Below are positions 18,916 through 39,139 of a stretch of 64,000 bases of DNA, piece after piece. Location: contig JAMBLJ010000013.1 of the NCBI GenBank assembly GCA_023336815.1, forward strand, positions 7,055 to 71,054, given 5' to 3'. The stretch's first letter is position 1. Each line of letters starts with the position of its first letter. Below the pieces are notes generated by a model. That model searched no databases. It was not told the DNA's origin and saw nothing but the letters and a program-made list of their open reading frames with translations. The stretch is from Actinomycetes bacterium. GTDB lineage: Bacteria > Actinomycetota > Acidimicrobiia > Spongiisociales > UBA5794. The position numbers and the translations under genes are program-made.

Positions 18916-20142
18916 TTACGACAGCCCGAAGATCTGTCTTGCCTTGAGGAGACCTTCAGCGAGGGCGTCGACCTCCTCAGGGACATTGTAGAGATAGAAC
19001 GATGCTCGGGCCGTTGCAGGAACACCGAGGTACTTCATCAGGGGTCTCGCGCAATGGTGACCCGCACGAACCGCGATCCCGTCCTGGTCGAGGATGGTGG
19101 CAATGTCATGGGCATGAATGTCTGCCAACTCGAAACTCACGGCCCCTCCTCGTTTGGTTGCGTCCTTGGGCCCATAGACGCGCAGATCGGGGATCTCGGA
19201 CAGTTTCTCGAGCGCATACGTGGTGAGGTCGCGCTCATGCGCAGCGATCACATCCATCCCGATGGCATCGAGATAGTCGACCGCGGCACCGAATCCGACA
19301 GCCTCTGCGATCGGTGGCGTTCCCGCTTCGAACTTGTGGGGGACGGGTGCCCAGGTTGACGTATGACGTTCAACGATGTTGATCATCTCACCACCACCCT
19401 CGGTTGGTTCCATCTCCTCAAGCCGCTCTGGTTTGCCCCACATTGCGCCGATTCCGGTTGGGCCGAGCATCTTGTGTGAGGAGAAGGCAAGGAAGTCGAC
19501 ATCGATCTGGTTCACGTCGACGGGCTGATGAGGTACGAGCTGTGCAGCGTCGAGCACGACGAGAGCGTCTACAGACCGGGCTGCCTGAGAGAGGACATCT
19601 ATGGGTCCGAGAGCGCCCGTTACGTTCGACATTCCAGAGAACGAGACGATCTTGATCCGGTCGTCGATCACGGACTCCAGTTCGCCGATATCCACTGTGT
19701 AGTCGTCGGTAAGTTCAAGGTAGACGAGCTCCGCTCCGGTATGCCTTGCGATTATCTGCCATGGGACGATGTTCGCGTGGTGCTCTGCGATCGTGACGAG
19801 GATCCGATCACCCTGTTTCAGGCGGTCGAGTCCCCAGCCGTACGCTATGTGGTTGATGGCGGTGGTTGTACCTCGTGTGAAGACGGTCTGTGCAGGGTCT
19901 GCTCCGATGAAGCGGGCGACCTTCGACCGAGCGCCTTCGTAGAGCTCCGTAGCTTCAGCCGCGAGGGTGTGGGCACCCCTGTGGACATTGGCATTCGAAG
20001 TTCGGTAGTACGCCTCCATCGCATCCAGAACAGCCACTGGCTTCTGCGTGGTGGCTGCTGAGTCGAGGTAGACGAGCGGGTGACCGTTGATGGAACGCGA
20101 GAGGATCGGGAAGTCCGAGCGCAGGCTCCGCAGGTCGGTCAC
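18916..20142 (-). CDS. sufS: Cysteine desulfurase SufS (class II aminotransferase)
   Basis: PLP lysine motif SSHKMLGPTGIG and C-terminal RAGHHCA active-site Cys. 408 aa. Confidence 0.9.
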   Translation of the reverse strand: MTDLRSLRSDFPILSRSINGHPLVYLDSAATTQKPVAVLDAMEAYYRTSNANVHRGAHTLAAEATELYEGARSKVARFIGADPAQTVFTRGTTTAINHIAYGWGLDRLKQGDRILVTIAEHHANIVPWQIIARHTGAELVYLELTDDYTVDIGELESVIDDRIKIVSFSGMSNVTGALGPIDVLSQAARSVDALVVLDAAQLVPHQPVDVNQIDVDFLAFSSHKMLGPTGIGAMWGKPERLEEMEPTEGGGEMINIVERHTSTWAPVPHKFEAGTPPIAEAVGFGAAVDYLDAIGMDVIAAHERDLTTYALEKLSEIPDLRVYGPKDATKRGGAVSFELADIHAHDIATILDQDGIAVRAGHHCARPLMKYLGVPATARASFYLYNVPEEVDALAEGLLKARQIFGLS

Positions 20143-20915
20143 CCAGAAACCGCTTCTGCCCGGTAGGCATCGTATCCGGTCTCTTCGATCCGGTCGGCAA
20201 GTGATGCCTCGCCGGATTCGACAATGGTTCCATCGAGGAACACATGGACGACATCTGGAGTGATGTAGTCCAACATCCGCTGATAGTGGGTGATGATCAG
20301 AAACCCACGCTCGTCGTTTCTGAGGCGTTCCACACCTTCAGCCACGATCTTGAGCGCATCGATATCGAGTCCTGAGTCGGTCTCGTCGAGGACGGCGAAG
20401 TCGGGTTCCAGCACCGCCATCTGGAGTACCTCATTGCGTTTTCGCTCACCACCCGAGAACCCCTCATTGAGATAACGGTCTGCGAACGACGAGTCCATGG
20501 CGAGTTCCTTCATCGCCTCCATCACCTTGAGTCGGAGTTCAAGCACCGTGTAGTCGGTACCCGTCCGGTTGGACAACGCGGCCCGAAGGAAGTTCACCAT
20601 CGATACACCCGGAATCTCCTCGGGGTACTGGAATCCGAGGAACATTCCTGCCTGACCGCGGGCCTCGGTCGCCATGTTGGTGATGTCCTCGCCCTTGTAC
20701 GTGATCGTTCCGCGCGTGACTTCGTAGCTCGGATGGCCGAGGAGAACGTTCGCAAGCGTTGACTTGCCGGATCCATTCGGACCCATGATCGCATGGGTTT
20801 CGCCGTGCGCGATTGTCAGGCTGACACCTTTGAGAATCTGAATGTCCTCGACGGATGCGTGGAGATCGTCGATCACGAGGAGGGGCTGGTCGGCAGGAGT
20901 TTGCAACATGGCCAT
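20139..20915 (-). CDS. sufC: Fe-S cluster assembly ATPase SufC (canonical copy)
   Basis: GPNGSGKST, FSGGERKR and ITHYQRML motifs. Confidence 0.9.
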   Translation of the reverse strand: MAMLQTPADQPLLVIDDLHASVEDIQILKGVSLTIAHGETHAIMGPNGSGKSTLANVLLGHPSYEVTRGTITYKGEDITNMATEARGQAGMFLGFQYPEEIPGVSMVNFLRAALSNRTGTDYTVLELRLKVMEAMKELAMDSSFADRYLNEGFSGGERKRNEVLQMAVLEPDFAVLDETDSGLDIDALKIVAEGVERLRNDERGFLIITHYQRMLDYITPDVVHVFLDGTIVESGEASLADRIEETGYDAYRAEAVSG

Positions 20916-27310: not shown

Positions 27311-28660
27311 ATGGCTTTCACGATCACGATGCCTCAGCTTGGCGAGACGGTCACAGAGGGGACCATCCTTGCCTGGGTGAAGCAGATCGGCGAGTACGTC
27401 GCTGAGGACGACATCCTCGTGGAATTGTCGACCGACAAGGTCGATACCGAAATCCCGTCGCCAGCCTCCGGTGTTCTCGTTGAGATCCTCGTTCCGGCAG
27501 GTACAACCGTTGAGGTGGGAACGCCTTTGGCGATTCTGGATGACGATGGTCAGACTGCAACAGAAGATCGGTCGACAGTTGACAGCCAACAGCCACCAGC
27601 AGAAGAGCAGTTGACAGTTGACAGCCGGCAGCCGACAGCCGGAGATCATCCAGCAGTCGAGACAACGGTGTCGCCGGCTTCGAGTGTTCAACAGGTCAGC
27701 GCAGAGAAGACGGCAAGACGCGGGGTGCTGTCGCCGGTGGTACGCAAGCTCGCGGCGGAACACAACATTGATGTAGCGATGGTTCCTGGCACCGGTGATG
27801 GTGGAAGGATCACCCGAAAGGACATCGAGGCGTTCATCGCCGCCCGGCGTGTTTCCCCTGCGCCCGATGCAACTCAAACCTCAGCCACACCGGCATCGGT
27901 CGTCCGGCCATCGGCACCTCGTCCTTCAGACTCGGTACGGCCTGGAGACGTCCGTGAGATCCCACGACTCCGAGCGCGGATCGCCGAGAATCTCGTGCAG
28001 GCGAAGCAGTCGGCAGCCCATGTATGGACATCGGTTGAGGTCGACTACGAACGTGTCGCATCCGTGAGGGCGAGACACGGCGACACGTTCAAGACGTCTG
28101 AAGGTTTCTCGCTCACGTACCTGCCCTTCATTGCGAGGGCAACGATGGACGCCCTCGCAGCGTACCCCGCAGTGTATTCGCTATTCGATATCGGGGCCGG
28201 AACCCAGTCGTTTCCACGAGACGTACACCTCGGGATCGCTGTTGATCTTGACCAGGCCGGTCTTGTTGTTGCGAACGTGAGGAACGCAGATTCCATGACA
28301 CTTAAGGGTCTTGCCAGGGCGATTCGTTCCGTGGCTACCGATGCTCGTGCCGGGAATCTGGGACCTGACGATCTCGCTGGATTCTCTTTCTCGATCACCA
28401 ATCCTGGACCGTTCGGGTCATTCATGAGCGTCCCGATCATCCCGTCTCCCACCGCCGCCATCCTCAGCACGGACACCGTGGTGAAGAAGCCGGTTGTCGT
28501 GGAGCTCCCGGACGGGTCCGATGGTCTTGCGATCCACCACATTGGATATCTCGGGTTGAGCTGGGACCACCGTGTCTTCGACGGTTCGACGGCCGTGCTG
28601 TTTCTCAAGCGGATCAAGGAGAATCTCGAGACCTGGGACTGGGAGCAAGAGCTGTCGTGA
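27311..28660 (+). CDS. Dihydrolipoamide acyltransferase E2 component (lipoyl domain + E3-binding + catalytic domain)
   Basis: Lipoyl-lysine motif TDKVDTEIPSP and catalytic DHRVFDG. Start at the ATG preceded by AAGGAG (27311); the upstream ORF extension is non-homologous. Confidence 0.85.
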   Translation: MAFTITMPQLGETVTEGTILAWVKQIGEYVAEDDILVELSTDKVDTEIPSPASGVLVEILVPAGTTVEVGTPLAILDDDGQTATEDRSTVDSQQPPAEEQLTVDSRQPTAGDHPAVETTVSPASSVQQVSAEKTARRGVLSPVVRKLAAEHNIDVAMVPGTGDGGRITRKDIEAFIAARRVSPAPDATQTSATPASVVRPSAPRPSDSVRPGDVREIPRLRARIAENLVQAKQSAAHVWTSVEVDYERVASVRARHGDTFKTSEGFSLTYLPFIARATMDALAAYPAVYSLFDIGAGTQSFPRDVHLGIAVDLDQAGLVVANVRNADSMTLKGLARAIRSVATDARAGNLGPDDLAGFSFSITNPGPFGSFMSVPIIPSPTAAILSTDTVVKKPVVVELPDGSDGLAIHHIGYLGLSWDHRVFDGSTAVLFLKRIKENLETWDWEQELS

Positions 28661-30315
28661 CGCTCGCGGTTACCAAGACCTTGCGGACACGGTGGCTTGG
28701 TCGCGTGACGTACGAGGAAGCGTGGGATCTCCAGAAGGCGATCTGGGAAGGTCGAACATCCGGCCGTACCGAAGACGACTATGTGCTGCTTCTCGAACAC
28801 CCCCACACCTACACCATTGGGCGTAATGGCGACGGCTCGAACCTGAAGATATCCGACGCCCGGCTGTCGGGTATCGGTGCGATCGTCCGTGAGGTCGACA
28901 GGGGCGGTGACATCACGTACCACGGACCAGGGCAACTTGTTGGATACCCGATCGTGGCGATCCCGGATATCGAAGGTGGATTCGACGCGGTCGGTCACGT
29001 GCGACGGATCGAGGAGGTGCTCGTTGCAACGCTTGCAGATCTTGGTATCGATGCGTGGGTGGAGACGGGATACACAGGTGTGTGGACCGGGGCGGGGAAG
29101 GTCGCAGCGATCGGCGTACGGGTGTCGAGGGGCGTATCGACCCACGGATTCGCACTCAACATCGACCCTGACATGACGTACTTCGGTCACATCGTTCCCT
29201 GTGGCATCACCGACAGAGCGGTTACGTCCGTATCCGAGATATTGGGTCGCACGATCTCGATCGAAGAGATCGTCGATCTGCTCGTTCCCCATCTCGAAGC
29301 TCTGTCGGTTAGCGACGATAATGAGATCCAACTTGGTGCGTTCTCTCGAGGAACGGGTCGGTCGAGCTATGAGGTCGATCGGATGGTCGATGACGGTGTG
29401 TTCAGTCCCAGGACGGCGACCGATGTACCTCTCATGATCAGGGGTCTCCTCGCTGGCGAGCCCGAGAAGCCGGACTGGATGAAGGTCCGCATCGACTTGC
29501 GCGATCCGAAGTTCAAGGAGCTGAAGAAGCTCAACAGTGAACTCGGTCTCAACACGGTATGTGAAGAGGCTGGCTGTCCAAACATATACGAGTGCTGGTC
29601 ATCCGGTACATCCACGCTGATGTTGCTTGGTGAGACGTGTACCCGTGCATGTTCGTTCTGCGACGTCAACACGGGCAAACCCGGAGCTGTTGACGAGGAC
29701 GAGCCGATGCGCGCTGCAGAGGCGATCGCAGCGATGCGTCTCAATCATGCCGTTCTGACATCGGTCAACCGGGATGATCTCGACGACGGGGGCGCGACGA
29801 TCTTCGCTCGCACGATTCACGAGATACAGGAGCGACTCCCAGACTGCGATGTCGAGGTGCTCATCCCGGACTTCAAAGGCGAGCTGGTCCCACTCGAGAT
29901 CGTCCTCGGTGCGAAGCCATCCGTCCTGAACCACAATACGGAGACGGTGCTTCGCCTCCAGCGTGAGATCAGGACGGGTGCGAACTATGCCAGGTCTTTG
30001 ACGCTGCTCGCCAGGGCGAGGTGGGCGAATCCATCGTCGACGGTCAAGTCAGGACTCATCGTTGGCATGGGTGAGACGGATGAGGAGATCATCGGAGCAT
30101 TGGCAGATCTCAACGCAGTTGGCGTGAACGTGGTGACGATCGGTCAGTATCTCAGACCAACGGCTCACCATCGCAAGGTCCACAGGTATGTACAACCGTA
30201 TGTATTCGATGACTACAAGATCGCAGGTGAGTCGTTCGGTCTGGCACATGTTGAGTCCGGCCCGCTGGTGAGAAGCTCGTACCACGCACGTGAAGCACTC
30301 GAGGCGGCTGTGTGA
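28657..30315 (+). CDS. lipB/lipA: LipB-LipA fusion ORF: octanoyltransferase (aa 1-225) fused in frame to lipoyl synthase (aa 243-552)
   Basis: LipB motifs: AGKVAAIG lysine and HIVPCGI cysteine. LipA motifs: CEEAGCPNIYEC and radical-SAM CTRACSFC. One continuous 552-aa ORF. Internal ATG at 29383 with GAGG upstream. Confidence 0.8.
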   Translation: MTLAVTKTLRTRWLGRVTYEEAWDLQKAIWEGRTSGRTEDDYVLLLEHPHTYTIGRNGDGSNLKISDARLSGIGAIVREVDRGGDITYHGPGQLVGYPIVAIPDIEGGFDAVGHVRRIEEVLVATLADLGIDAWVETGYTGVWTGAGKVAAIGVRVSRGVSTHGFALNIDPDMTYFGHIVPCGITDRAVTSVSEILGRTISIEEIVDLLVPHLEALSVSDDNEIQLGAFSRGTGRSSYEVDRMVDDGVFSPRTATDVPLMIRGLLAGEPEKPDWMKVRIDLRDPKFKELKKLNSELGLNTVCEEAGCPNIYECWSSGTSTLMLLGETCTRACSFCDVNTGKPGAVDEDEPMRAAEAIAAMRLNHAVLTSVNRDDLDDGGATIFARTIHEIQERLPDCDVEVLIPDFKGELVPLEIVLGAKPSVLNHNTETVLRLQREIRTGANYARSLTLLARARWANPSSTVKSGLIVGMGETDEEIIGALADLNAVGVNVVTIGQYLRPTAHHRKVHRYVQPYVFDDYKIAGESFGLAHVESGPLVRSSYHAREALEAAV

Positions 30316-34175: not shown

Positions 34176-35611
34176 TCAGCATTATTGCCGGAAGCACACA
34201 CGGAGCCGATCTTCTGATCATCCCGGTCCTTACGGACCGGATCCTCGCATGTGACCCTGACCTATCGCCCGATCTCGACGAGGTGTCCACTCTCCTGGAT
34301 GCGAGAGATTTCGACGGCAAGCGCGGGGAATCCGTGTTCGTGCCGACTCCGGGGGGTCCAACTCCAGAAGTGTTGCTTGTGGGACTCGGTGACGAGATCG
34401 ACGCCGAGACACTGCGCCGAGCCGCAGGTTCCGCCGTTCGTACCGCTTCCAGATACACAACCGTGGCATCGGCGTTGAACCAGGTCGATATCGACGATGC
34501 CGCGAATGCCGCTGCCCTCGGAACTTGGTTGGGTGCGTACTCATTCGATGAGTACAAGTCTCAACCGAAGACACCGAAGATCTCGACCATGGTTCTGGTG
34601 TCCAACAACGATATATCAGCACAGATCGACGATGCGCGAGCAGTCGCTTCCGGGGTCATCCTCGCGCGGGATCTCGTGAATCGACCCGCGAGGGACAAGG
34701 CCCCTCGACAGCTCGCGGCGATCGCCCAGGAACTTTCTGGATCGATCGTTGTGACCGTCTTCGAGGAAGACGAGATCGCTGAACGTGGCTTCGGTGGACT
34801 TGAAGCCGTCAACCTTGGAGCTGATGAACCCGCCAGAATGGTCGTGATGCGATACATGCCCGAAGGGGCAACGAAGACACTTGCGTTGGTAGGGAAGGGA
34901 ATCGTTTTCGATTCAGGTGGACTCTCGATCAAGCCAGCAGCTGGCATGGAGACCATGAAGACCGACATGGCTGGGGCTGCCGCGGTCATGGGTGCGATGC
35001 AGGCGATCGCTGAGATCGGTCTCACGATCAACGTCGTGGGGATCGCACCGATAACTGAGAACATGACGGGCGGATCCGCACAGCGGCCTGGTGACGTCAT
35101 GAAGGCATACAACGGGAAGACGATCGAGGTGCTCAACACAGATGCCGAAGGACGGCTTGTTCTTGCCGATGGTTTGGCGCTTGCTGTCGAGGAGGCACCT
35201 GACCTAGTGGTCGATATCGCGACGCTCACGGGCGCGTGCAAGGTTGCACTCGGTCCGCTGATTGGCGGGTTCTTCGCGACAGACGACGAGGCGGCGCATC
35301 TCGTTGATGTTGCGGCGAGTACTGCTGGTGAGAAACTGTGGCGTCTCCCACTCGAGGAGGAGTACCGGTCGATGATCGAATCGGATATCGCTGACATGAA
35401 GAACACCGCCGGGAGATGGGGAGGGGCTATCACCGCCGGTCTCATCCTGTCCGAGTTCGTCGGTGACACCCCATGGGTACATATCGATGTTGCCGGTCCG
35501 GCCCGAGCAGACAAGACGGAGCACTATCTCATCAAGGGCGGATCAGGGTTCGGTGTACGCACCCTCGTAGCTCTCGCCCGCACCATGCAATGCGAGTCAG
35601 CTGACAGCTGA
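34172..35611 (+). CDS. pepA: Leucyl aminopeptidase (M17)
   Basis: NTDAEGRLVLADGL signature. ATGA overlap with tkt. Confidence 0.9.
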   Translation: MISIIAGSTHGADLLIIPVLTDRILACDPDLSPDLDEVSTLLDARDFDGKRGESVFVPTPGGPTPEVLLVGLGDEIDAETLRRAAGSAVRTASRYTTVASALNQVDIDDAANAAALGTWLGAYSFDEYKSQPKTPKISTMVLVSNNDISAQIDDARAVASGVILARDLVNRPARDKAPRQLAAIAQELSGSIVVTVFEEDEIAERGFGGLEAVNLGADEPARMVVMRYMPEGATKTLALVGKGIVFDSGGLSIKPAAGMETMKTDMAGAAAVMGAMQAIAEIGLTINVVGIAPITENMTGGSAQRPGDVMKAYNGKTIEVLNTDAEGRLVLADGLALAVEEAPDLVVDIATLTGACKVALGPLIGGFFATDDEAAHLVDVAASTAGEKLWRLPLEEEYRSMIESDIADMKNTAGRWGGAITAGLILSEFVGDTPWVHIDVAGPARADKTEHYLIKGGSGFGVRTLVALARTMQCESADS

Positions 35612-35870
35612 CGGGAACGCTGCCGCGTTCCTTGGGCGTTGCTCCGCAACTCCGGCCAACTTCTTCTGCTGGCGGGAACGCTGCCGCGTTCCTTGGGCGT
35701 TGCTCCGCAACTCCGGCCGACTTCTTCTGCTGGCGGGAACGCTGCCGCGTTCCTTGGGAGTTGCTCCACAACTCCGGCTGTCTTCTCTTGCTGACGGCGG
35801 GAACGCTGCCGTGTTCCTTGGGAGTTGCTACCCAACTCCGGATGATGGCTGCTTCTTGCTGATTGCTGAC
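35612..35870. repeat. Four tandem degenerate copies of a 61-64 bp repeat, each containing the hairpin GGAACGC-TGCC-GCGTTCC and a second small palindrome GTTGC-tcc-GCAAC
   Basis: Copies begin at about 35612, 35673, 35734 and 35798. Located between the pepA stop and the downstream gene. Confidence 0.7.
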
Positions 35871-35964
35871 AACCTCTTCCCCCACGTTTCTCTCAACCGT
35901 GCGTGGAACCTTTCCGATACGGAACGTAGCAACTTGACTGCTGTCCGTGGAGGGTTCTCCCGCG

Positions 35965-36675
35965 ATGCGAAAACTCAGCAAACTTCTGACCCTTGCGGTC
36001 GCTGTAACCGTCTTCCTCGCAGCGTTCGCATCACCAGCGTTCGCCGGCGCTGAGAGCCAATTCGTCTCCAAGATCAACGCAGCCAGATCGGCTTCCGGCA
36101 AGGCTCCACTCGAGGTCTACTGGGATCTCACCGACGATGCACGTGCTCAATCGGCAGCGATGGCAGCGAAGGGCAGTATCTACCACAACCCTGGCCTGGC
36201 GGGTGTGACCAGCGGATGGCAGAAACTTGGTGAAAACGTCGGTGTCGGGTTCGATGTCAACATGCTGCATAAGGCGTTCATGGACTCGGCGGGGCATCGG
36301 GCGAACATCCTCGGGGACTTCAACTACATAGGTGTCGGTGTCAAGGTCGACGATGCAGGACTCATGTGGGCGACCATGATCTTCATGAAGGCACCGTCAG
36401 GTTTGAACGGCGGCGGCGAGACAACGACGACAACAACGCCACCCACAACGACTACGAATCCGCCTCAGCCAACGACGACGACAACTACCACAACCGCCAC
36501 ACCTTCGGGCGGCGAACCTGTGCCCGTTGTGTCCCCCGTGGTACCCAAACCTCGCAGGACAGATACAGCTAGTGCTGACGCGGGTGGATCATCGCCGGGG
36601 ACATCTTCAGCCAAACCAGAGAACTTCGACGTCGTTGTGGAATTTGGACGGCCACGGGGTCCCTACGCGTTCTGA
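35965..36675 (+). CDS. Secreted CAP/SCP/PR-1-like domain protein with a Thr/Pro-rich C-terminal linker
   Basis: Signal peptide. CAP-domain-like motifs (GHRANILG, YIGVGV). TTTTTPPTTTTNPPQPTTTTTTTT low-complexity linker. Confidence 0.65.
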   Translation: MRKLSKLLTLAVAVTVFLAAFASPAFAGAESQFVSKINAARSASGKAPLEVYWDLTDDARAQSAAMAAKGSIYHNPGLAGVTSGWQKLGENVGVGFDVNMLHKAFMDSAGHRANILGDFNYIGVGVKVDDAGLMWATMIFMKAPSGLNGGGETTTTTTPPTTTTNPPQPTTTTTTTTATPSGGEPVPVVSPVVPKPRRTDTASADAGGSSPGTSSAKPENFDVVVEFGRPRGPYAF

Positions 36676-37736
36676 TCACCGCAGACAGAACAGGCGGGGT
36701 CCTTGGAGACAGGCAGCCGCGTGAACTCTTGTCGCATGCCGTCGTACAGAACGAGCGTTCCGAGCAGCGATTGTCCATTACCGACGATGAGTTTGATCGC
36801 TTCTGTCGCCTGCATCGAACCGAGGATGCCGGTAACGGAACCGAGCACCCCCACAGTGAGACAGTCGAGCGGGATGGTCACATCGGGCATATCCGGGAAT
36901 ACGCACCGATAACACGGTCCACGAGAGGCATCGAACACCGATATCTGACCTTCCATGCGGTACACGGATGCAAAAGCAACGGGGACTCCGTGTGCGACTG
37001 CTGCGGCGTTGATGGCGTGGCGAGCAGCGAAGTTGTCTGAAGCGTCAACGACGACGGTTGCTCCTGCGAGCAGTTCTGCAGCGTTGGATGTCTCGAGGCG
37101 AGTTCTATGCGTCACTACCTGGACGTCTGGATTGAGCGACCGGATGAAGGCCTCGGCCGAATCGACTTTGGCATTCGCAAGATCGTGGATGCCGTGTATC
37201 GGTTGACGTTGGAGGTTCGAGCTGTCGACGGTGTCATCGTCGATGATCGTCAGCGTGCCTACTCCAGCTGCAGCCAGATAAGCGATCACAGGTGAACCGA
37301 GTCCGCCAGCTCCGACGACAACGACGTTCGCTGCGAGCAGTTTGGATTGACCCTCGGCGCCGATGAATCCGAGCTTGAGGTGTCGATCGTATCGCTCGAG
37401 TTGTACAGACGTCAGACCATCCGCTCCCGAGAGGGGGAGGCCGCTGCGTCTCCACGCATCAATCCCGCCACGTAACGAGGTCGTGTTGAAATACCCTGCT
37501 GTTCTGAGCCGCTCTACGGCGATCGCAGAACGAAGACCGACGTCGCAGGTGACGAGAACACGTGTGTTGCTCGTCTCGATCACCGTCGCTGGCGATGCGA
37601 GAAGTTCCTCGAGCCGCACGAAGATCGATCCCTGGAGACGCGCTGATGTGGCTCCGTGGGGTCGAACATCGATGATCATGTCGAACGCAGATGGATCGAT
37701 GTCGTCCGGGTCGGTCTCGTGGGCGATTTGGGTCAC
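36663..37736 (-). CDS. Rhodanese-E1 fusion: N-terminal rhodanese domain (active-site CDVGLRS) followed by a ThiF/MoeB-type adenylyltransferase domain (VGAGGLGS, CYRC ... CSVCG)
   Basis: Domain motifs read directly. The order rhodanese-then-E1 is inverted relative to MoeZ/MOCS3-type proteins. Confidence 0.8.
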   Translation of the reverse strand: MTQIAHETDPDDIDPSAFDMIIDVRPHGATSARLQGSIFVRLEELLASPATVIETSNTRVLVTCDVGLRSAIAVERLRTAGYFNTTSLRGGIDAWRRSGLPLSGADGLTSVQLERYDRHLKLGFIGAEGQSKLLAANVVVVGAGGLGSPVIAYLAAAGVGTLTIIDDDTVDSSNLQRQPIHGIHDLANAKVDSAEAFIRSLNPDVQVVTHRTRLETSNAAELLAGATVVVDASDNFAARHAINAAAVAHGVPVAFASVYRMEGQISVFDASRGPCYRCVFPDMPDVTIPLDCLTVGVLGSVTGILGSMQATEAIKLIVGNGQSLLGTLVLYDGMRQEFTRLPVSKDPACSVCGDQNA

Positions 37737-37798
37737 ACACGAAAGAGTAGGCGCATCCGCCGCGATCAGTTACAGGGTTTCAACTCCACCGTTCCTGG

Positions 37799-38248
37799 TC
37801 ATGCCGCACCAGGAACGGCACGGGCGTGTGCTCGTCGCAATGCTGGAGGGAACCTCTGCACGAGGTACTCAGGGACAGGCGGCACTTTGTCGGCCACAGT
37901 GATCGAACCGTCGTGCCATACAACGAGCCCGATCCGGAGAAGGGATTCGAGATAGATCGGTTCCTTGAGGGAGCGGCCGCTGTGTGCGGCGGCGGTGAGT
38001 CGTAGCAGGTCTGCGACCGCCCCCGGTCCAAGGACCGCTATCCAGAACTGGCGGACGTATCGATGCGTAGGTGGGTAGCCAGTCGCGGCGCTGTCTGCCA
38101 GGACGGGGGACACATCGGTACGGGTCAGCGCTGTTCGTCTGGGATGAGCGTCCGCGACGTCCGGGATCACTGCACGAGTTCCCTGGGAGGGAGGACAGAC
38201 CTGACAGGGAGCGGTCCCGGACGTCGGCGGAAGATCGGTGGAGTTCAT
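37799..38248 (-). CDS. Hypothetical protein upstream of and co-directional with the rhodanese-E1 gene
   Basis: ORF only. No family recognised. The C-terminus is not GG. Confidence 0.3.
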   Translation of the reverse strand: MNSTDLPPTSGTAPCQVCPPSQGTRAVIPDVADAHPRRTALTRTDVSPVLADSAATGYPPTHRYVRQFWIAVLGPGAVADLLRLTAAAHSGRSLKEPIYLESLLRIGLVVWHDGSITVADKVPPVPEYLVQRFPPALRRAHARAVPGAA

Positions 38249-38318
38249 ATGATCAGTAGTATCAGATACAGCTAAGTAAACACAAGTACCATGAACAAGC
38301 CCGCGAAAACTTATCAGT

Positions 38319-38331
38319 GGTGACTGTCACC
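38319..38331. promoter_or_regulatory. 13-bp palindrome GGTGAC-t-GTCACC in the divergent promoter region between nat and the rhodanese-E1 operon
   Basis: Read in the sequence. Confidence 0.25.
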
Positions 38332-38386
38332 GATCACCGGGTGCGTAGACCCCTTGTGGTTGTACCTCTGGCTAGGGTCGTTGCGT

Positions 38387-39139
38387 ATGTCGATATCTCG
38401 CGATGCGTATCTTGAACGAATAGGACTTTCTGTCGTCCCAACCGTCGATGTGGAAGGTCTTGAGACTCTCCAGAGGGCACATCTCACGGCGATCCCCTTC
38501 GAGAATCTCGACGTTTATGCCGGGCGCGATGTACGCACAGATCTCGACTGGTCCCTCCACAAGATCGTCGAACGGCAACGGGGTGGATGGTGTTTCGAAC
38601 TCAACGGTGCGTTCGGTGAGTTGCTGCGTCAGATCGGATTCGATGTGCGGCGCCTCTCCGCTACCGTGCTCCTGTCGTCCTCGTCTGGTCCGCCAAGCCA
38701 TCTGACGCTCGAAGTTCGACTCGATGTCCCGTATCTGGTTGATGTGGGGTTCGGCGACAGCTTCATCACGCCCCTCCGACTCGAGTCGTCTGAGATACAA
38801 CCCAGCGGCGACTCGTCCTATATGATCGAAAATGCGCGAGGTGTCCACACACTGAGCGAGGCCACTTCCTCCGGCGTCATGAAGCAGTTGTATCGCTTCG
38901 ATCGGTCACACCATGAACTCGCCGACTACACCATTCACTCCAAGCGGCTACAGACTGACCGGACCCTCAAGTGGTCCCAGGCACGTTTCGCAACACGACT
39001 TGTTGACGGTGGACCCGATCGCGTCACGCTGCTTGAGGACGTACTGAAGTTCAGACGTGATGGGGTCTGGACAGCAGAAGCGATCCAACCCGATGATTGG
39101 GACACCGAGCTAGCTCGCTGGTTCACCATGACGCCTTAA
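38387..39139 (+). CDS. nat: Arylamine N-acetyltransferase (NAT)
   Basis: Catalytic RGGWCFELN motif. Start set at MSISRDAYLERIG. Confidence 0.8.
   Translation: MSISRDAYLERIGLSVVPTVDVEGLETLQRAHLTAIPFENLDVYAGRDVRTDLDWSLHKIVERQRGGWCFELNGAFGELLRQIGFDVRRLSATVLLSSSSGPPSHLTLEVRLDVPYLVDVGFGDSFITPLRLESSEIQPSGDSSYMIENARGVHTLSEATSSGVMKQLYRFDRSHHELADYTIHSKRLQTDRTLKWSQARFATRLVDGGPDRVTLLEDVLKFRRDGVWTAEAIQPDDWDTELARWFTMTP

Follow-up and report, generated by a model that had tools for sequence, protein, structure and literature searches.

A rhodanese-E1 fusion of a known family and a conserved RNA hairpin in the neighbouring small gene of an Acidimicrobiia genome

In E. coli, the activating enzymes MoeB and ThiF have no rhodanese domain, and their genes are linked to the moa and thi genes, respectively. 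In Thermus, a single unlinked E1, TtuC, which also lacks a fused rhodanese, serves TtuB, MoaD, and ThiS; it sets an example of a housekeeping E1 with carrier genes at other places in the genome. The E1 and rhodanese domain types are joined in MoeZ/MoeZR of Mycobacterium, in MoeBR, in human MOCS3, and in Uba4 of yeast and Chaetomium, all of which have the rhodanese domain at the C-terminus. MoeZR is described as serving both MoaD and CysO (PMC3227635), and comparative papers mention carboxy-terminal rhodanese fusions only (PMC1779556, PMC2593051). Here we examine a 64,000-nt stretch of contig JAMBLJ010000013.1 from an Actinomycetes bacterium of the class Acidimicrobiia (hereafter the window), in which a gene for a 357-aa protein carries these two domain types in the opposite order and follows a small gene of 149 codons. 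The initial annotation of this locus, made from the sequence alone, regarded the fusion as an inverted and noncanonical E1. Its reading of the sequence stands, as all of the features that it listed are present, while its interpretation is supported only in part: the architecture is catalogued and common. The E1 is an ordinary member of a known family, and the unexpected feature of the locus is an RNA hairpin in the neighbouring gene.

Both domains of the fusion protein are readily recognised. Pfam Rhodanese (PF00581) matches residues 19–97 (E = 1.3e-9; 38.9 bits against a cutoff of 22.2), and ThiF (PF00899) matches residues 116–351 (E = 1.7e-74; 250.4 bits against a gathering threshold of 28.1) in an alignment that is complete over profile positions 1–238 of 238. 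As the initial annotation had stated, the rhodanese domain precedes the ThiF/MoeB-type domain, which reverses the order seen in MoeZ, MOCS3, and Uba4, and the motifs CDVGLRS (with Cys64), VGAGGLGS, CYRC (Cys275 and Cys278), and CSVCG (Cys349 and Cys352) can all be read in the protein. There are six cysteines in total, namely Cys64 of the rhodanese domain, the four of the zinc site (275, 278, 349, and 352), and Cys292. In alignments with E. coli MoeB and ThiF, Cys292 falls on the loop cysteine of these enzymes, which also share the zinc tetrad. In the 120 best relatives, Cys64, Cys275, Cys278, Cys292, and Cys349 are kept in 119–120 sequences and Cys352 in 115. The rhodanese loop residues C64, G67, R69, and S70 are kept in 119, and the conservation of R115/R118, D168, the NLQRQ motif, the zinc cysteines, and Cys292 ranges from 115 to 120.

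Structural comparisons agree with these assignments. The rhodanese structure 6mxv in the PDB matches the N-terminal domain (E = 2.3e-13), and the E1 domain aligns residue by residue to E. coli MoeB and ThiF with 35–40% identity and E values of about 1e-51 each, so that it is equally similar to both. The adenylation domain of Uba4 is also a good match in sequence and structure. An AlphaFold2 (AF2) model of the whole protein built with 60 homologues reached a mean predicted local distance difference test (pLDDT) score of 94.5 and a predicted template modelling score (pTM) of 0.91, and its E1 domain superposes on ThiF and MoeB structures with template modelling (TM) scores of 0.94–0.96 when normalised to the target and a root-mean-square deviation of 1.4–2.5 Å. 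No solved structure spans rhodanese and E1 in the present order, and TM scores normalised to the query did not exceed 0.66. Taken together, both domains are present, the catalytic and zinc-binding residues are intact and conserved, and the fold is confidently predicted.

The order of the domains is not peculiar to this protein. For a census, the query was split into its two domains and each was compared with the 120 best database clusters. The rhodanese domain came first in 119 of them; in the remaining cluster, the E1 domain starts at residue 129 and the part N-terminal to it is unmatched, so the order could not be scored, which leaves 119 of 119 scorable relatives with the same arrangement. 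In addition, the best NCBIfam match is a curated 387-position model, NF006444/PRK08762, named 'molybdopterin-synthase adenylyltransferase MoeB', which shares the two domains, their order, and the catalytic residues with the window protein. The alignment is a single colinear stretch that places residues 19–355 on model positions 30–370 and covers both domains, and its score of 380.4 bits lies about 70 bits above that of the next family. Because the architecture has its own curated model and is common to the relatives, the description of it as noncanonical does not hold.

Compared with the proteins behind this model, the window protein lacks about 30 residues at the N-terminus and about 17 at the C-terminus. 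Five relatives with an N-terminal rhodanese pass the model with 510–572 bits and full-length alignments; two of them (P0104 and P0119) are from Myxococcota, two (P0097 and P0044) lie on contigs that share the gene order of the window, and the fifth is P0059. Close relatives of the window protein (P0009, P0033, and P0064) score 320–403 bits, and these proteins, like that of the window, are 353–357 aa long, come from Acidimicrobiia-type metagenome-assembled genomes (MAGs), and cover model positions of about 30–370. The window protein is therefore a shortened, divergent branch of the catalogued family of E1 enzymes with an N-terminal rhodanese domain.

The name attached to this family raises the question of substrate. 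The NCBI record for the exact protein reads 'MAG: molybdopterin-synthase adenylyltransferase MoeB [Actinomycetia bacterium]', from a 78-kb contig. Two marks of an ordinary, already known enzyme are thus found, in that the architecture is common and the protein is named MoeB, whereas the third, a linked moaD, is missing. An adenylyltransferase of molybdopterin synthase dedicated to MoaD alone would fit this name, and the protein also passes the broad MoeB subfamily model NF004281 with 272.9 bits against a cutoff of 266. We nevertheless consider such a restriction unlikely, since the MoeB equivalog TIGR02355 fails by a wide score difference (208.5 against 376.55 bits) and the E1 domain resembles ThiF as closely as it does MoeB. 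The ThiF equivalog TIGR02356 (232.5 against 275.25 bits) and the MoeZ model NF005902 (278 against 647 bits) fail as well. The genomic context is also at odds with an enzyme dedicated to MoaD. No molybdenum cofactor (Moco) gene is found in the window or in the syntenic loci, and the relatives are linked to genes for iron–sulfur (Fe-S) proteins, cysteine desulfurase, and JAB peptidases; a single Moco-related gene (MoCF_biosynth) occurs near one relative only, about 4 kb away and on the opposite strand.

These neighbourhoods of the relatives give an indication of function. At one distant locus of an E1 with an N-terminal rhodanese, genes for Rrf2, an ABC ATPase, cysteine desulfurase, NifU, the E1, and Prok-JAB stand in a row, and other distant loci have the arrangements NifU-E1-JAB or E1-JAB, or an IscA/HesB-like gene beside the E1. 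The neighbourhood type 'E1 fused to rhodanese + JAB' was listed by Iyer et al. (PMC1779556, Table 1, rows 4a–4c), and JAB peptidases are components of ThiS/MoaD-type sulfur-transfer gene clusters (PMC1779556). The linkage of the relatives to JAB and sulfur-mobilisation genes, together with this listed neighbourhood type, supports a role in sulfur relay to a carrier protein. A 138–140-aa ORF found 3' of the JAB gene in relatives looks like a membrane protein, and its membership in the family of the small gene upstream of the window E1 was rejected (hhalign probability 0.9%).

In the window itself, the E1 gene sits in a housekeeping core block. On related MAG contigs, this conserved block runs PBP1A, (ABC transporter), small ORF, (SIR2), E1, CAP, M17 peptidase, and transketolase, the genes in brackets being present in some cases. 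The genes scanned across the window are of a housekeeping kind as well, including those for a SufS-like desulfurase, a SufC-like ATPase, Lpd, an E2 subunit, a LipB-LipA fusion, and transketolase, and further for the M17 peptidase, PBP1A, methylmalonyl-CoA mutase, ArgRS, threonine-pathway enzymes, and Rho. The SufS-like desulfurase, 17 kb from the E1 gene, is a plausible candidate for the sulfur donor of the rhodanese domain. It is a class-V aminotransferase of 408 aa (18916–20142) whose gene overlaps that of the SufC-like ABC ATPase, the pair spanning 18916–20915 on the reverse strand.

From its domains, conserved residues, and gene context, the fusion protein is probably a housekeeping enzyme that activates sulfur-carrier proteins from unlinked genes and that has a built-in sulfurtransferase. 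Such an enzyme would be expected to do the same job as MoeZ, MOCS3, and Uba4 with its domains in the opposite order, and it presumably shares their chemistry of adenylation followed by persulfide transfer to a β-grasp carrier. The steps can be outlined from the chemistry established for MoeB, ThiF, MOCS3, and Uba4. The E1 homodimer would bind ATP and a ThiS/MoaD/CysO-type β-grasp carrier encoded elsewhere, and would adenylate the C-terminal glycine of the carrier. A cysteine desulfurase would load a persulfide onto Cys64 of the rhodanese domain, and this persulfide would then attack the acyl-adenylate to form an acyl-disulfide. Reductive release, possibly with the conserved Cys292, would yield the carrier thiocarboxylate, which may go on to serve the synthesis of molybdopterin, thiazole, or cysteine, or the thiolation of tRNA; the carrier, the sulfur donor, and the downstream pathway named here are putative. 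The rhodanese domain stops approximately 10–15 residues ahead of a helix with the conserved sequence R115-Y-x-R118, whose counterpart in E. coli MoeB is in the N-terminal segment. As this segment of MoeB lies near the nucleotide site, a short tether could bring Cys64 close to the adenylate.

Several points weigh against the assignment as a housekeeping sulfur-relay enzyme. With its 380.4 bits, the window protein does not reach the NF006444 cutoff of 449 bits, so strict orthology with the PRK08762 proteins is not established. A search of the accessible literature found no biochemically characterised E1 with an N-terminal rhodanese, so that the function rests on homology and gene context. Lastly, no gene for a carrier, for Moco or thiamin synthesis, or for cysO/cysM was found in the 64-kb window or in the homologous loci, and the linkage to moa or thi genes known from E. 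coli is not seen here.

The absence of a linked carrier, which the initial annotation had pointed out, was borne out by every search made. No plausible ORF of at least 25 aa that ends in Gly-Gly was found in the window, and none of ten small unassigned ORFs across the window matched ThiS or MoaD. The sole Gly-Gly-ending ORF near the locus (37965–38078, forward strand) lies antisense within the 149-aa ORF. Clustering of the small Gly-Gly-ending ORFs from 89 sequences, amounting to 877 kb of homologous neighbourhoods, gave no recurrent carrier-like family near the E1. The largest cluster had four members of 25–50 codons ending in ...AGG-Gly-Gly, located in distant loci far upstream of the small ORF and upstream of the PBP gene (L033 2570–2689, L066 2044–2130, L068 2551–2703, and L080 2462–2539); these have no counterpart in the window and may be pieces of a larger gene. 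Because no Gly-Gly carrier is found in the window or in the homologous loci, the carrier is taken to be unlinked, which is most likely the situation here and is not unusual for this class of enzymes. As to the alternative proposal of a very small carrier, no Gly-Gly family was found to recur anywhere in these neighbourhoods.

The initial annotation also allowed for a protein-conjugation E1. An enzyme of this kind, of the SAMP/UbaA, TtuB/TtuC, or Urm1/Uba4 type, might attach a ubiquitin-like protein to targets, possibly in addition to transferring sulfur. The second-best NCBIfam match is indeed the SAMP-activating E1 UbaA (NF047750) with 310.6 bits, the loop cysteine of MoeB and ThiF has a conserved counterpart in Cys292, and JAB peptidase genes lie 3' of the E1 in relatives. 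The UbaA score is nonetheless below its cutoff of 450 bits, the locus contains no ubiquitin-like, E2, or JAB gene, and the protein has no E2 domain. Models of defence-type E1-E2 proteins (Cap2-like, PADLOC) cover the E1 domain only in part (about residues 108–283) with at most 68 bits, and no PADLOC match was found among the neighbours of the E1 gene. The invariant rhodanese cysteine, in turn, indicates persulfide chemistry. A conjugating role is accordingly regarded as quite improbable.

The gene upstream of the E1 was described in the initial annotation as having no recognisable family and no Gly-Gly end, and this was confirmed: the 149-aa protein ends in ...PGAA, and neither Pfam, NCBIfam, PADLOC, nor a profile search of PDB sequences gave a match. 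It does have relatives. There are 53 homologues, mostly from MAGs of Acidimicrobiia or Actinomycetota, without a Pfam domain and 'hypothetical' wherever they are named. A profile search of 1.84 billion cluster representatives returned 346 matches, nearly all 75–200 aa long and none of them showing fusion to a larger domain. In a genome scan, the family was present in 124 species representatives, and nearly all of the 80 listed species genomes are labelled as MAGs of Acidimicrobiia, Acidimicrobiaceae, or Actinomycetota. The ORF is therefore a real, conserved gene of a small family found in Acidimicrobiia-type MAGs. The AF2 model gives pLDDT values above 90 for 92 of the 149 residues, almost all within residues 45–145, where the predicted core has a helix-helix-helix-hairpin build (winged-helix-like) with extra elements. 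The sole fold match, a weak one, is to the DnaD-like winged helix of Geobacillus DnaB (5wtn, E = 0.024). The core is basic (isoelectric point 9.7) and contains an invariant GAVADLLR block (G76–R83) within the conserved stretch LGPGAVADLLRLTAAAHSGR. A ThiS/MoaD-type carrier was considered for this protein and rejected in view of its variable C-terminus, the absence of a Pfam match, and the predicted helix-rich, winged-helix-like fold.

NCBI annotates this gene as 123 aa, starting from an internal GTG within the 3' arm of the hairpin described below. The 149-aa form is favoured because its ATG is conserved, its frame is open in the loci that are complete at the 5' end, and a promoter-like block lies directly upstream. 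The 112-aa gene call in the homologous locus L001 is too short as well. This promoter-like block is conserved in an alignment of four loci, and its position immediately ahead of the ATG suggests that the mRNA of the small ORF is leaderless or nearly so. A promoter scan under strict sigma-70 criteria gave no site.

A separate transcript for the E1 is suggested by the spacer that divides its gene from the small ORF. In this spacer, the only conserved element is a TAnnCT box 7–8 nt before the start codon; the invariant columns in the alignment of six loci are TA..CT, and in the window the box precedes a GTG start. No Shine-Dalgarno sequence was found ahead of the E1 across the loci, and there is no terminator between the two genes. 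The conserved box close to the start and the missing Shine-Dalgarno sequence suggest that the E1 has its own promoter and leaderless transcript. At the ABC transporter genes in L011, L014, and L015, a TAnnCT or TACGCT box is also present 6–8 nt before the start, again with no Shine-Dalgarno sequence; the boxes ahead of the E1 and ABC transporter genes thus suggest leaderless mRNAs. The M17 peptidase and CAP genes do carry GGAGG-type sites.

The small ORF and the E1 frequently occur together, and it could be argued that the E1 acts on or with the 149-aa protein, as a new pair of enzyme and substrate, adaptor, or regulator. Among 74 assessable species loci of the small ORF, an E1 with an N-terminal rhodanese lies on the same strand within 350 bp downstream in 37, a SIR2 gene stands between the small ORF and the E1 in 11 more, and the E1 is found further downstream on the same strand in another 12. 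Three loci have the E1 on the other side, and 11 keep the small ORF with no E1 in reach. The adjacency of the small ORF to PBP1A or the ABC transporter is equally conserved and the E1 has its own conserved −10-like box, and for these reasons the pairing is read as inherited gene order. A functional pair is further disfavoured by the loci that do without the E1, by the C-terminus of the small protein, which is variable and never Gly-Gly, by its predicted fold, which is winged-helix-like rather than β-grasp, and by the E1s with an N-terminal rhodanese on other contigs, which have no such small ORF upstream among their called neighbours. It is thus very unlikely that the two proteins form a dedicated pair. 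The intervening SIR2-family gene was seen in the more distant contigs L004, L007, and L050–L084 (e.g., L007 5216–5980), and some loci, such as L045 and L046, keep the small ORF and SIR2 with the E1 absent.

The most distinctive feature of the small gene is found in its RNA. A search for conserved upstream words returned GTCCTCCC in 71 of 85 loci, and this word belongs to a hairpin of approximately 80 nt. An asymmetric internal loop separates its long outer stem from its inner stem, which is capped by an apical loop with the invariant motif GUCCUCCC. In 75 loci, the codons of this loop are CGT (63/75), CCT (72/75), and CCC (71/75), compared with a background in the same genes of 12%, 13%, and 33%, respectively. 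The first of them varies between Arg, Cys, Gly, and Ser, but it keeps GT, which argues for selection on the nucleotides. The region is also translated: the frame is open from the conserved ATG in every locus that reaches the 5' end, and the conserved peptide motifs PG...RPP...PG arise where the CCCGGG stem arms and the loop are read as codons.

Folding and covariation both support the structure. In the window, an 86-nt segment that begins 14 nt after the A of the ATG folds with −45.3 kcal/mol (z = −4.8), and 13 of 14 diverse homologues fold alike (z = −3.8 to −7.7). RNAalifold, applied to a plain MAFFT alignment of 46 sequences, predicts an 11-pair outer stem in which ten pairs have compensatory changes. 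When the minimum free energy (MFE) structure of the window is laid on an ungapped MAFFT alignment of 21 sequences, 82% of the cells can pair, compared with 33–51% when the 3' partners are slid, and 15 pairs change on both sides, a value that none of 500 shuffles reached. A covariance model (R1) built from this ungapped alignment finds a single match in each of 53 loci, invariably located where the small ORF has its 5' end, and nothing significant in the remaining DNA. In the window, the hairpin scores 90.5 bits (E = 1.5e-16); the opposite strand gives 22 bits, and the sole other listing has 13.8 bits (E = 1.1). In the alignment fitted to the model, 88% of the cells pair and 21 of 25 pairs change on both sides, with 198 cells showing such double changes, where shuffles give 57 ± 9 and slid partners no more than 43. 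This last alignment leans toward the structure by construction, and the same structure is supported by the two model-free alignments. Many of the changes in the fitted alignment are from C-G to U-G, which would be mismatches on the other strand.

The hairpin belongs to the small ORF and not to the E1, as it is retained in loci that have no E1, for example L061, L064, and L069. A search of Rfam 15 with window positions 36500–38500 and six homologous loci gave no match over the hairpin at E ≤ 1, including none to 6C. The actinobacterial 6C RNA and the staphylococcal UCCC-loop small RNAs (sRNAs) are regulatory RNAs with C-rich loops, and the hairpin resembles them in that a stable stem presents a C-rich, anti-Shine-Dalgarno-like loop. 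Unlike them, it is embedded in coding sequence, at the 5' end of one particular mRNA. No intramolecular partner for GUCCUCCC at a consistent offset was found within 160 nt on either side, and ribosome-binding sites of the GGGAGGAC type, which would be complementary to the loop, are not enriched before the E1 or SIR2 genes.

On balance, there is an even case for regarding this Rfam-absent hairpin, early in a probably leaderless mRNA, as the novel element of the locus, with a GUCCUCCC loop that could dock a trans-acting partner. Candidates for this partner could include the 149-aa protein itself, a G-rich sRNA, or the ribosome-binding site of another mRNA, and binding to the loop could control the translation or stability of the small-ORF mRNA. 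Our best guess is that the hairpin is a cis-acting element that governs initiation or stability, with the C-rich loop offered in trans. It is a weaker extension of this idea that the module of hairpin and small ORF also tunes the adjacent sulfur-relay E1.

The 6-1-6 palindrome that the initial annotation had singled out is present upstream of the small ORF, and its significance is not upheld. The window contains 33 perfect 6-1-6 palindromes, and a match with at most one mismatch arises in 28 of 100 shuffles. The palindrome is missing from the corresponding position in all homologous loci, and elsewhere in the 88 loci it occurs only as an unrelated site inside a PBP gene. Alignment with the three closest loci shows it as an insertion of 12 bp. 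A role as an operator was therefore rejected on the grounds of chance expectation and lack of conservation. The coordinates of the features discussed here are collected in Table 1.

Table 1. Positions in the window of the E1 gene, the small ORF, and the elements associated with them.
Feature	Coordinates	Strand	Basis or remark
Rhodanese-E1 fusion gene, 357 aa	36663..37736	−	ORF call, Pfam, NCBIfam, AF2 model
Rhodanese domain, residues 19–97	37446..37682	−	PF00581; loop C64-D-V-G-L-R-S70, Cys64 codon 37545–37547
ThiF/MoeB-type E1 adenylation domain, residues 116–351	36684..37391	−	PF00899, alignments, structure superposition
TACTCT, −10-like box, 7 nt ahead of the GTG start of the E1	37744..37749	−	Six-locus alignment
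149-aa ORF	37799..38248	−	Residues 1–44 disordered, 45–145 basic winged-helix-like core; homologues, AF2
RNA hairpin, ~80 nt	38149..38234	−	Codons 5–34 of the 149-aa ORF; covariance model, covariation, folding
Invariant loop motif GUCCUCCC, codons NGT CCT CCC	38189..38196	−	Resembles anti-Shine-Dalgarno
Promoter-like block GGTACTTG-N5-TACTTAG...CTGATACTACT	38251..38294	−	Four-locus alignment
6-1-6 palindrome GGTGACTGTCACC	38319..38331	+	Most likely a chance match

Other observations were made in the surroundings of the locus. The E1 gene converges with a CAP-domain gene (35947–36675, forward strand), and the 3' ends of the two overlap by 13 bp (36663–36675); in loci L001 and L002, this overlap is 4 bp. 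Between the M17 peptidase and CAP-domain genes lies a tandem repeat (35607–35841) with a 61-bp unit in 3.8 copies of 91% identity, each unit having two short inverted repeats as judged by eye. An ORF of 552 aa on the forward strand (28657–30315) combines a LipB/LplA-type domain (residues 19–213) with a radical-SAM LipA-like domain (residues 324–483) and is an apparent LipB-LipA fusion that adjoins the genes for the 2-oxoacid dehydrogenase E2 and Lpd.

The arrangement of a rhodanese domain before an E1 domain is widespread and already modelled, and there is no ground to flag it as anomalous; similarly, the lack of a carrier gene next to it is not in itself a sign of a new system. The interest of the E1 itself is low, and that of the locus comes from the small-protein family and from a hairpin that is absent from Rfam. 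The hairpin shows that apparent protein motifs can be the mere translation of an RNA structure, and its position within an annotated ORF would hide it from surveys that are limited to intergenic regions. Ultimately, it adds a strongly covarying candidate cis-regulatory RNA to what is found in a poorly studied and mostly uncultured class.

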